From: a virus
Lineage: Duplodnaviria > Caudoviricetes
Strand: one strand, 5' to 3'
Virus record (IMG/VR): IMGVR_UViG_3300027881_000017
Span: 1 to 56,115 of that record
DNA: 56,115 nt
A model generated the notes under the pieces. The model was not told the origin of the DNA. It did not search any database and worked only from the letters and a program-made list of their open reading frames with translations. The position numbers and the translations under genes were made by a program. This document shows positions 17,691 to 31,194 of this stretch, piece after piece. Each line of letters begins with the position of its first letter. Position 1 is the stretch's first letter.

Positions 17691-18503
17691 TTATTCTGAT
17701 CCCATTAATTGTTGGCTGGTTTGAATCGAAGCGTCAATTGCTCTCCTGCGGTTTCGATTCTCCATTACGTGGGTTGTAAACCAAGTTACCATATTGTAGA
17801 AATCCCACATGGTTTTAAGTTCATCGTTTTTTAGTTTCTGCTGGTAGATATATCCAATTTTTTTGCTATACATTTTGCCGAGTTCCAATGAACGTAAAAC
17901 CACAGCCGCTTGAACTTTGTCAAAATCAAGCTTGGTTAGTTCTTCCCAGGAATTTGCAAGATCATTGTAGAATATTTCCTTGGCCATTTCAAAATTAACA
18001 ATAAATATATCCAGTAGATCTTCTTCACTTCCAACGTGGCTGTCACGCCATTCATACAATTTTTCTTTGGTCATTAAACCGTTCAAGCAGATCTTGCGCA
18101 ATCCGCCAATGCTCATTCCTTTGCTAATACCGTCACCATATCCGTTCCAAAGATCGCACATCAGTTCTATGTCATCTGTCATGCTACCATATCCAGTTTC
18201 GTATTCGCCGACGTTGGTTTTAATGTCTGGGAAACGATAATTTGCCCAGAACCGGCTTCCAGTTAAGTTGCATCCTGCTCCAGTTCGTGAAAATTTCACG
18301 TCGGTATCGTTCAGATATTTTTCAAACGTATTTACGAGAACATCATTCTGGACGATTTTGTACCGGTTAGATACGACCGATACCAGATTGCCCGTATTTG
18401 CGTTGAAAATAGCCTGTCTGGGGATCAAAACACCTGATTCGACTGCTTGTACTTTCTCAACCTTTAACGGGAAAAACGGATCAATCAGTTTTTCTTTGCT
18501 CAT
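17691..18503 (-). CDS. DUF932-family protein
   Basis: VVSNRYKIVQN, NGYGDG, RKICLNGL, HVG, WDFYNMVT motifs. Confidence 0.8.
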   Translation of the reverse strand: MSKEKLIDPFFPLKVEKVQAVESGVLIPRQAIFNANTGNLVSVVSNRYKIVQNDVLVNTFEKYLNDTDVKFSRTGAGCNLTGSRFWANYRFPDIKTNVGEYETGYGSMTDDIELMCDLWNGYGDGISKGMSIGGLRKICLNGLMTKEKLYEWRDSHVGSEEDLLDIFIVNFEMAKEIFYNDLANSWEELTKLDFDKVQAAVVLRSLELGKMYSKKIGYIYQQKLKNDELKTMWDFYNMVTWFTTHVMENRNRRRAIDASIQTSQQLMGSE

Positions 18504-18530
18504 GATTTACTCCTTTTGTTTGTGGTTTGC

Positions 18531-18571
18531 AGCACGGGCTGGAGTTGAACCAGCCCTGCGACCATCGTGCT
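18531..18571 (-). ncRNA. tRNA-minihelix-like element (acceptor-like stem plus T-arm)
   Basis: AGCACG/CGUGCU stem stacked on GGCUGG/CCAGCC with canonical T-loop UUCAACU. Confidence 0.5.
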
Positions 18572-18692
18572 TGTTACCTCGAGTTGATACTGTAAAGAAC
18601 TTCGCCATTTTCTTTTTCTTTTTGTACATCGTATTTAGTCCGCATATTATGAAGATGGCGAGTAATGGTTCTGGACAATGCTTCTTTATCCT

Positions 18693-18765
18693 GGCATGAG
18701 ATGTATATGATTCATGCTTCGCCCGCAAGTGGCTAAATGCCCTATTTTAAGCCGCCACTTCGGCT
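18693..18765 (-). ncRNA. Pistol-like ribozyme
   Basis: P1 AGCCG/CGGCU, loop AAGUGG pairing with CCACUU, linker UAAAAUAG, P2 GGCA/UGCC, UUUAG loop, GCG; P3 and cleavage dinucleotide are atypical. Confidence 0.55.
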
Positions 18766-19303
18766 ATGTGTAATCACCGTTTAACAATGTTTCGCTGATT
18801 TCATCTGCGTTGAATTTTTGTCCTTTGTAATATACAGTATAAGTTCCATCTAATCTTACAAGAATGCCCATCGTCCTCTTCTCTTCTGTTTTAAATTTCC
18901 ACGCTACTTGCTTTCCTTTGCTTAATGCAGGATTTGGGTCTACGCCAAAAATTTCTTTAATTTTTTCTCCAGCAGATCTTAACAACTCGTCTTTTTTTAA
19001 CAATAAATCTTTACGAGTTGACGATTTTTTCTTGTTCGGTTTTGTTACTGCTTCTTTTTGGTGTTTTTGCAACTCTGAAACAAGATCGTCTTTTTTGACG
19101 TTGGCTAAATTGCCGGAAGTATAACCGCCCATAAAAGGCGTTAAAGCACGATTTAATTCCTGTTTAGTCATTGTTTCTAATTGCTGCGTGTTCATCTTGT
19201 TCTCCTTTTGTTTGGTTTTTGTTAAAATTGGAACTCTTGTAGCAATAGAATCATTGCCATAATAATCCTTCATTGCTCTTTCAACCGCTTGGCTAAAAGT
19301 CAT
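18764..19303 (-). CDS. Hypothetical early protein (strong internal start at 19195)
   Basis: RBS-like sequences before both ATG 19303 and ATG 19195. Confidence 0.65.
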   Translation of the reverse strand: MTFSQAVERAMKDYYGNDSIATRVPILTKTKQKENKMNTQQLETMTKQELNRALTPFMGGYTSGNLANVKKDDLVSELQKHQKEAVTKPNKKKSSTRKDLLLKKDELLRSAGEKIKEIFGVDPNPALSKGKQVAWKFKTEEKRTMGILVRLDGTYTVYYKGQKFNADEISETLLNGDYT

Positions 19304-21253: not shown

Positions 21254-21589
21254 TCAAAAAATATTTATTAACTTTTTTTGCTTTTTCTCAGACCATTTGG
21301 CTTTAAAGCCATCTCCCACAACATATCCGGTAATAAAGCCAAATTCTCTTAAGTCTTGAATATTGAATTTTTGGAGATCAGATGGTTCGTCCTTCCAGTT
21401 TCTTTTAATTTCAAGCCAGTACCTTGCGTTGCCGCCTTCATTAAAAGAAATTAAAACCATCAAGTCTGGCAAACCGGTTTCTTGGTATCGGCCACCGTGG
21501 ATTTTTATAAATCTGATTTTTGTGGATTTTAGAGGGAATCGTTCATGAACTATTTTTTTTATTAAACTAATATTCTTGTTTTGTAGCAT
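21254..21589 (-). CDS. VRR-NUC family nuclease
   Basis: KIHGGRYQETGLPDL...WLEIK...PSDLQ. Confidence 0.85.
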   Translation of the reverse strand: MLQNKNISLIKKIVHERFPLKSTKIRFIKIHGGRYQETGLPDLMVLISFNEGGNARYWLEIKRNWKDEPSDLQKFNIQDLREFGFITGYVVGDGFKAKWSEKKQKKLINIF

Positions 21590-30345: not shown

Positions 30346-31194
30346 CTATTCTTCATCGTCTGCAAATGGATTTTCTTCGTCTTCGTTAAATTTGCCTTTG
30401 TCCTCATCCTCTGGCTTGGATTTCTTTTCAACGTTTCTCTGTTCTGCTTTTATTTCGTCTTCGTCCTCATGGACTTCAACCTGGGTTGATGTTATTAACT
30501 TGTAAAACTCCTCTCCTTTTTTTATTTCGTTTTTTTCTGCCATTCCTCCCGGTGCTATTTTGAATTGAAAATAAGTACCTTTGACATTTTCCTTAAAATC
30601 TGTCGAAAGATTATAGGCGAAATGCCAGCTATTTTTTTGCGCTTTTTGCGCATCAAAATAAATCATATTTCTTAATTGCTTGCCCGCACCCATCGATGTT
30701 CTACCGAACGACGCGGTTAATGGTATCGGAAAGTCATATCCTCTAACGATGCAAAAACTGTTTATTAATTCAGTACATGGAGGCGGAATGCCCTTGCCTG
30801 TTTTTTCATCTATCGGCCACGGATTTGGATTAAACTCACAGCCAATGCAATTCCCGCCAGGTTCGCCCCTGCCTGTTTTTCCATTAAGTGATTGACATAA
30901 TAAACCGCCTCCTTCGCCGAAATCCCGAAACATTAGTCGTGTCGGATGGAATTTTAAAGGAATAATAGTAAGGGATTCATCTGTCTCGCATATTACCTCT
31001 TTTGTTACGCTGTTAACAACCTCCCCTGGCTTGGCGGTTTTATCATCAATTTCCACACTGTTCTTTTGGACAAGTTTTAATCGGGGGATTGTTAACATGT
31101 CCTGAGTGATGCCTTCAAGGCCGGCAATTACTCCGTCTTTCGTTTTGACGACTGCCGTATCGCTGGGTTTTTTTACTACATCTTTGTTTGCCAT
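30346..31194 (-). CDS. Putative ssDNA-binding/recombination protein
   Basis: IPRLKLVQKNS motif, Cys cluster, acidic tail ending NPFADDEE; replication context. Confidence 0.55.
   Translation of the reverse strand: MANKDVVKKPSDTAVVKTKDGVIAGLEGITQDMLTIPRLKLVQKNSVEIDDKTAKPGEVVNSVTKEVICETDESLTIIPLKFHPTRLMFRDFGEGGGLLCQSLNGKTGRGEPGGNCIGCEFNPNPWPIDEKTGKGIPPPCTELINSFCIVRGYDFPIPLTASFGRTSMGAGKQLRNMIYFDAQKAQKNSWHFAYNLSTDFKENVKGTYFQFKIAPGGMAEKNEIKKGEEFYKLITSTQVEVHEDEDEIKAEQRNVEKKSKPEDEDKGKFNEDEENPFADDEE

Follow-up and report, generated by a model that had tools for sequence, protein, structure and literature searches.

The analyzed window represents a complete virus record of 56,115 bp with direct terminal repeats, and DNA near-identical to it was contained in seawater metagenome runs. 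No RNA runs were listed among those matching the window. In two additional seawater DNA runs the assembled contigs left 18515-18991 uncovered and thus carry no information on variants. A reassignment of stop codons in this genome was considered and dismissed, since with translation table 11 the 57 ORFs that reach 100 aa or more account for 84% of its length. The locus consists of a complete gene for a 179-aa protein, a pistol-like RNA element at its end, an out-of-frame 3' fragment of an alternative version of the same gene, a tRNA-like minihelix and a gene of the DUF932 family (Table 1). The pistol layout had been claimed for the minus strand element by element in the first-pass annotation, and all of these elements were found in place.

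Table 1. Features of the locus in minus-strand order; positions are those of the window.
Feature	Position	Strand	Remarks
179-aa ORF with 'A-type' C-terminus	18764-19303	(-)	complete; colinear with P0025
stop UAG of the 179-aa ORF	18766-18764	(-)	overlaps the first two bases of P1
P1 hairpin	18765-18750	(-)	AGCCG 18765-18761 / CGGCU 18754-18750; 5/5 standard pairs; 6-nt loop
pseudoknot 5' strand, AAGUGG	18760-18755	(-)	identical with the P1 loop
A-rich linker, UAAAAUAG	18749-18742	(-)	includes the invariant AAA (19-21) and A23; alignment A4
P2 5' strand, GGCA	18741-18738	(-)	Rfam and R1 alignments
core junction, UUUAG	18737-18733	(-)	U-[U/C]-A-[A/G]-G in real pistols
pseudoknot 3' strand, CCACUU	18732-18727	(-)	6/6 Watson-Crick pairs with AAGUGG
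invariant GCG, positions 40-42	18726-18724	(-)	alignment column conservation
putative P3 remnant	18723-18694	(-)	GGCGAAGCAUGA 18723-18712, loop 18711-18700 (12 nt), UCAUGC 18699-18694
competing stem	GCAUGA 18717-18712 with UCAUGC 18699-18694	(-)	6-bp hairpin, present in the MFE fold
UGCC, putative P2 partner	18696-18693	(-)	CA at 18698-18697 just before
stranded 'B-type' 3' gene fragment	18574-18693	(-)	39 codons and stop; frame +1 relative to the 179-aa ORF
tRNA-like minihelix	18531-18571	(-)	spacer ahead of the DUF932 gene
DUF932 gene (PF06067)	17691-18503	(-)	downstream; the element lies 220 nt upstream of the gene

The Rfam scan at gathering scores produced no RNA family match in the window. 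Below this level, the pistol family (RF02679; Weinberg et al., 2015, as cited in PMC4604425) matched 18715-18765(-) at 20.0 bits against a gathering cut-off of 34.5, with E-values of 0.28 (601 nt, all families) and 0.006 (pistol family alone, whole genome). The check with the Rfam covariance model, proposed in the first-pass annotation, therefore gave a divided answer: the element was the sole match in the genome at E ≤ 10, but it stayed under the cut-off. Sub-threshold pistol matches at E ≤ 10 also occurred in 8 out of 14 control genomes. In the Rfam alignment the 5' part fitted well, while P3 was reduced to 1 nt compared to 19 in the model and the GU was absent, so that the low score of the full model is explained by the missing 3' part.

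The 5' part was then compared with phage pistols. A linear motif, TWAAATAG-N4-TTWAG-N6-GCG, had 72 matches in IMG/VR outside the record of the window; 22 of them possessed at least four of the five P1 pairs together with at least five of the six pseudoknot pairs, while the other 50 failed, showing that the linear motif alone arises by chance. Among the 22 pistols chosen in this way by their 5' half alone, all except L052 exceeded the Rfam cut-off (34.6-71.4 bits), and two Rfam scans of IMG/VR loci listed 31 pistols. An independent model, R1, was built from the 5' 40-44 nt of 24 distinct phage pistols with the window excluded and with P1 as its sole structure; the exact duplicates L050, L056, L059 and L061 were left out, and so were L064:6126, L064:7804, L073 and L076, whose 5' parts duplicate included rows. 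This model matched 18765-18724 over its positions 1-42 at 32.4 bits (rough E-value 1.5e-7), while the runner-up match in the window reached just 9.8 bits. The 32.4 bits exclude any contribution of the pseudoknot, and the window forms 11 of 11 P1 and pseudoknot pairs. In the alignment of 25 sequences (window included), 97.8% of the P1 and pseudoknot cells were paired and all 11 pairs varied on both sides, with 98% of the cells paired and 6/6 pairs changing on both sides in the pseudoknot helix taken separately, although this covariation is partly circular because 14 of the alignment rows were selected for having the P1/pseudoknot pairings. The R1 score, the complete set of pairs and the covariation within the family argue for a homology of 18765-18724(-) to the pistol ribozyme which is beyond reasonable doubt.

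Eight alignment columns, namely A19-A21, U29, G33, G40, C41 and G42, were invariant in all 25 sequences and, the window being one of them, are all kept in it; it also retains the highly conserved A23 and, like the real pistols, a purine at position 32. Purine 32, the G33-C41 pair, G40 and G42 are named as catalytically important in the review PMC6154101, the numbering of which we presume to map onto the present alignment. The exception is position 31, where the window has U and all 24 real pistols compared have A; the corresponding TTAAG was present in all 22 pattern-selected pistols from IMG/VR. A strict pattern with the TTTAG form gave no matches among the genome contigs of 185,579 species, and the 26 matches of a TTTAG-type motif in IMG/VR contained the pseudoknot in no case. 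The main texts of the pistol literature searched made no statement on position 31 or 'A31'. The 5' half, with P1, the 6-bp pseudoknot, the linker, the P2 5' strand and GCG present, thus deserves the description 'near-canonical' that it had received, apart from U31.

The situation at the 3' side is different. [quoted passage not shown] Both AU and GG junctions occurred among the real pistols examined, and since the junction identity varies in nature, CA alone does not disqualify the element. The UGCC with CA instead of GU in front of it, which had been pointed out before, can indeed be read at 18698-18693, although its UGC doubles as the end of the hairpin of greater stability, and its final C is already part of the gene fragment. 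In real pistols P3 starts at the base directly after GCG, while in the UGCC register only two contiguous P3 pairs abut the junction. The bulged pistol-like fold with UGCC in P2 had a predicted energy of -4.6 kcal/mol compared to -8.97 kcal/mol for P1 and P2 alone, i.e., the bulged P3 carries a penalty of +4.4 kcal/mol. The combination of P1 with the competing hairpin reached -12.6 kcal/mol, which is 8 kcal/mol better than the pistol-like fold, and it buries the putative cleavage site in a helix. Both the bulge in P3 and the competition by the GCAUGA/UCAUGC stem, as stated in the first-pass annotation, agree with these predicted energies (-4.6 versus -12.6 kcal/mol).

The search for a better 3' part was negative. 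Within 330 nt downstream there was no site with more than four contiguous P3 pairs and, when the full P2' (4 pairs) was demanded, none with more than three. A P3 adjoining a 2-nt junction and the P2 3' strand was found neither in cis nor elsewhere in the genome, and inspection by eye of the region upstream of P1 revealed no P3'-NN-P2' strand, so that a circular permutation is not apparent. The 3' arm is, as had been claimed, non-canonical: P3 is collapsed in the Rfam alignment and none abuts a 2-nt junction. The local fold of 131 nt was unremarkable (z -1.3), with 21 of 200 shuffled sequences at least as stable.

The 179-aa protein was 33% identical to P0025 over query residues 45-173 (E 9e-18) and colinear with it to the end, which shows that its ORF is not a broken gene. 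Its N-terminal part of approximately 100 residues is common to a family of 19 members, while the C-termini differ: in the family alignment the type present in the relative L028 (B-type) was found in 8 of 11 members, the A-type in the window protein and P0025, and P0023 had a different one. This small phage family (P0017-P0035) appears as a shared N-terminal part combined with interchangeable C-terminal domains. The C-terminus in 8 of the 11 aligned members is helix-rich and gives a DNA-binding-like impression, and Pfam detected in the 179-aa protein just a sub-threshold SAP-like match at residues 45-85. The AlphaFold model of this protein had a mean pLDDT of 61.8, falling to about 55 towards the C-terminus, and such values do not permit a fold search. 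All that this low-confidence model suggests for the C-terminus of the type shared with P0025 is one helix and then five strands, beginning after residue 96.

In L028, which was retrieved by way of the DUF932 family and whose DUF932 protein is 58% identical to that of the window, the upstream gene is a single uninterrupted ORF of 169 aa. The N-terminal ~100 residues of its product match the 179-aa ORF of the window, while the last 39 residues match the translation of window 18693-18577 (25/39 identical, 37/39 positive, E 2e-18), and the stop position is identical in the L028 gene and in the window fragment. Starting with the fragment, the window is colinear with L028, including the tRNA-like minihelix. 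Base 18694, the last one of UCAUGC, directly abuts 18693, where CAG, the codon with which the aligned part of the fragment opens, begins. A comparison of the 39-codon fragment with L028 gave a pS of 0.68 and a pN of 0.16 with no frame damage, i.e., strong purifying selection. The fragment may thus either come from a recent crossover or still be translated, e.g., from UUG at 18678, which has AGGA 10 nt upstream and is located 14 nt after UGCC. From the purifying selection, which would be unexplained if the crossover were old, we take it that the event was recent; that the 5' part shows just one change in its core is in line with this. Scans of the surroundings for promoters and terminators produced nothing beyond the shuffled expectation.

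The gene order shared by the window and L028 extends beyond the locus (window 21254-21589(-) and L028 835-1200), as exemplified by a protein of ~111-121 aa starting with MLQNKNISLIKKI.../MKQNQNIKLIKKI... on the upstream side. The minihelix consists of coaxial 5-bp and 7-bp stems with a T-loop-like UUCAACU (UUCGAUU in L028), followed by ...AAACCA, and its fold has -22.5 kcal/mol (z -2.1). It is kept in L028 (about 2404-2444) with a compensatory change of U-A to C-G, while L037 has a plain hairpin. The minihelix is part of the L028-like backbone and has no share in the pistol. ARAGORN found no tRNAs and RF00005 had no match at E ≤ 10, the resemblance being limited to the acceptor-like and T-arm-like stack. 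It might serve as an intercistronic signal for processing of the RNase P/Z type, a task which a pistol would fulfil as well.

The setting of real pistols was surveyed with 27 non-redundant Rfam-supported representatives. In four of them the upstream stop codon, ending a frame open over at least 65 codons, overlaps P1 by 1-2 nt, and three of these four overlaps involve TAG exactly as in the window. In a further seven, P1 is preceded within 11 nt by the end of an upstream frame of 83 or more open codons, and 16 out of 27 are followed by an ORF of at least 50 codons that begins 1-59 nt past the ribozyme. Pistols occupy short same-strand intergenic spacers. Their cleavage is reported to leave one product ending with a 2',3'-cyclic phosphate and another starting with 5'-OH (PMC4604425), and by this chemistry pistols in such spacers would split polycistronic RNA; the text of PMC6765202 still calls their biological role unknown.

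The explanation which we prefer, with a probability of roughly two-thirds, is that the element represents the 5' ~72 nt of a pistol whose last ~12 nt were lost through an illegitimate crossover, and that it most likely no longer cleaves. The stretch following GCG would then be a truncated P3 helix: a P3 5' strand and a loop are followed by only 6 nt of the partner, placing the break at 18694/18693. The ancestor would have been an intact pistol in the position usual for phages, right after the stop of one gene and separated by some tens of nucleotides from a following gene of like orientation, where it would have cut the polycistronic transcript. One crossover partner would have been a phage with an A-type gene followed by the pistol, and the other a phage of the L028 type, contributing its DNA from the middle of the B-type gene onward, with the joint halfway along the P3 3' strand. 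The P3 would originally have had 12 bp, formed by GGCGAAGCAUGA, the loop and the partner strand; its six distal pairs (GCAUGA/UCAUGC) would remain, and GGCGAA would be left without a partner. The lost ~12 nt would include six nucleotides of P3, two of the junction with the scissile phosphate and four of P2', while the present UGCC would have been created by the joint itself, with UGC coming from P3 and C from the fragment. Such a remnant could still form P1 and the pseudoknot. A single crossover explains the stranded out-of-frame 39 codons, the colinearity with L028 downstream and the presence of the enzyme part without a cleavage site.

From the four readings offered in the first-pass annotation (variant, switchable, decayed, or supplied with a substrate strand from elsewhere), this retains 'decayed' in the more exact sense of truncated, since the element ends where the stranded fragment begins. 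The bases following GCG, moreover, resemble a P3 helix in which the proximal half of the 3' strand is lacking.

Neither an intact relative of the ribozyme nor a donor was found in the IMG/VR and genome-contig searches, and we accordingly deduce from one genome and one uninterrupted relative that a crossover took place; the precise position of the joint and the loss of activity are deduced as well. A pattern scan of IMG/VR with the predicted lost 3' strand had seven matches, none of them with a pistol 5' half. Cultured phages contained no relatives of the locus according to blastn and tblastn, the word-indexed protein search returned one homologue for the 179-aa protein and none for its tail, the IMG/VR scans by family and tail alignments retrieved the L028 contig only or nothing, and no DUF932 relative was present in the genome contigs.

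Any residual or trans activity of the element is unlikely. The first form of it is an active non-canonical pistol cleaving in cis with UGCC in P2, a CA junction and a weak bulged P3. A cut between C18698 and A18697 would free a 5'-OH RNA starting 19 nt before UUG 18678. The catalytic-core columns other than A31 are kept, a 4-bp P2 partner and a 2-nt junction do exist, the variable identity of natural junctions (PMC4604425; AU and GG seen here) tolerates CA, the distance of 14 nt from UGCC to UUG resembles the 13-17 nt behind six pistols in the L060 locus, and the downstream fragment is under purifying selection. We nevertheless consider this improbable, since P3 has only two contiguous pairs and the competing hairpin is favored by 8 kcal/mol, A31 is changed, and a 4-nt partner for GGCA is expected by chance within ~60 nt (about 1/64 per position). 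Furthermore, the L028 homology extends five codons upstream of the UUG, as for a cut gene and not for a designed small ORF.

It is still less probable that a pistol lacking its own substrate strand stays alive by being completed, either by a host or phage RNA offering UUCGCC-NN-UGCC or by an alternative fold in cis. If it were so, the alternative cis fold would cut just upstream of the conserved fragment of 34-39 codons and govern its expression.

Taken by itself, the notion of a natural enzyme strand which cleaves another RNA in trans, with the target supplying UUCGCC-NN-UGCC, appears very doubtful. To our knowledge, there is no case of trans cleavage by a natural small nucleolytic ribozyme. 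The surviving part does have a counterpart in the bimolecular pistols of the laboratory, namely their enzyme strand with most of the conserved nucleotides (PMC4604425, PMC6154101), and the genome has an exact 6+2+4 site, TTCGCC-CC-TGCC, at 30862-30873(+). This site, however, is antisense to the sole long ORF there, and a genome should contain ~0.1 such exact sites by chance. When as many as two mismatches were allowed, the 14-nt pattern had five matches against 1.83 expected, and five were reached by 4 of 100 shuffles, and the best genomic site, with nine P3 and four P2 pairs, was matched or bettered by 144 of 200 shuffled guides. The scan for a strand complementary to P3 and P2, suggested in the earlier reading of the sequence, thus yielded nothing above chance in the phage genome, and the supply of the substrate strand from elsewhere found no support, given that no genomic site stands out and the shuffled guides do as well.

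A similarly slight chance is given to a fold of P1 and pseudoknot that is kept for another use, such as a stop or readthrough structure or a switch with an anti-P1 sequence. The hairpin does begin inside the stop codon, and the MFE fold permits a helix between GAAGUGGCG and the downstream CUCGCCAUCUUC. On the other hand, ordinary pistols too have stops overlapping P1, a readthrough of UAG would add just 26 codons before UAA at 18688-18686, and TAG ends 13 of the 57 long ORFs, i.e., it is an ordinary stop in this genome; the fold, with its z of -1.3, is not unusual, and for a switch no relatives were found to show conservation.

Hardly credible is an intron or a spliced or bypassed insert of 232-238 nt between codon 125 and the fragment, with an incidental likeness to a pistol. 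If 18928-18694 were excised, ...NP would continue in frame with QDKE... (with DKE... if 18928-18691 were excised), much like L028, but no group I/II or other ribozyme family was detected at E ≤ 10 over 18400-19000 and none at gathering score across the window. Moreover, the 'intronic' frame encodes a true protein domain, which P0025 has as well, and the homology with B-type members already stops near residue 101, which points to a replacement and not to an insertion. A mere chance resemblance to a pistol, to which the score under the Rfam cut-off and the sub-threshold matches in control genomes could be attributed, is practically negligible in view of the 32.4 bits (E 1.5e-7) with the independent 5'-half model, the unscored 6/6 pseudoknot and the fact that P1 and the pseudoknot occur together in none of the 50 chance motif matches.

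The element has several key properties in common with RF02679: the 5-bp P1, the 6-bp pseudoknot that ties the P1 loop to the P2-P3 junction, the AAA linker, the P2 5' strand and GCG, as well as the setting in a phage, immediately after the stop of a gene within a series of genes on one strand. In contrast to RF02679, the element has neither a P3 next to a 2-nt junction nor an unpaired P2 3' strand and hence no canonical cleavage site, it carries U31 in place of the invariant A31, and its score is 20.0 bits versus the 34.5 required. The laboratory bimolecular pistol consists of a 47-nt enzyme and an 11-nt substrate (PMC6154101); the remnant would approximate this enzyme strand plus the P3 loop, and the missing ~12 nt the substrate strand. 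The laboratory system is, however, engineered and supplied with its substrate, while for the window element no natural substrate was found.

Mosaic phage genomes form a further parallel. In them, illegitimate recombination leaves partial genes at the joints, and the window shows the same picture, with a complete gene followed by the out-of-frame 3' fragment of its alternative version and a downstream part colinear with another lineage. The difference is that the joint in the window would also cut a ribozyme, which places the breakpoint within a few bases.

The element itself is ordinary biology, being a known ribozyme class in a broken state. It demonstrates that true homology to pistols is possible far under the Rfam cut-off, and the score that is lacking indicates which part was lost. 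If the preferred reading is correct, the ribozyme marks, to the level of single bases, the joint at which two phage lineages underwent illegitimate recombination, and supports the presence of pistols at the borders of gene modules, where such joints survive selection. The remnant would also be a natural near-equivalent of the enzyme strand from the bimolecular pistol experiments.

Several other pistol loci encountered in the survey had peculiarities of their own. The 9,955-nt locus L060 contains six pistols above the cut-off within ~6 kb, each ending with ...CAGUAAA, and after every one of them the ATG of an ORF with at least 50 codons begins 13-17 nt further on, which resembles a repeated intercistronic cassette. 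The pistols L064 7804-7882, L064 6126-6201 and L073 57-130 end 7-11 nt before tRNA genes (at L064 7890, L064 6211 and L073 142, respectively). L064 and L073 belong to a single IMG/VR contig, and this phage tRNA array contains six pistols; a full-text literature search turned up no description of such a pistol-tRNA pairing. The pistol L076 7623-7688(-) is short of ~25 nt after the P3 5' strand in comparison with the otherwise identical L046, L050 and L056, while L052 has a canonical 5' half with no Rfam match at the cut-off, and both are candidates for further damaged or variant pistols. Similarly to the window element, L076 comes from a phage and is damaged on the 3' side, but at 39.9 bits it remains above the Rfam cut-off, while the window element falls below.
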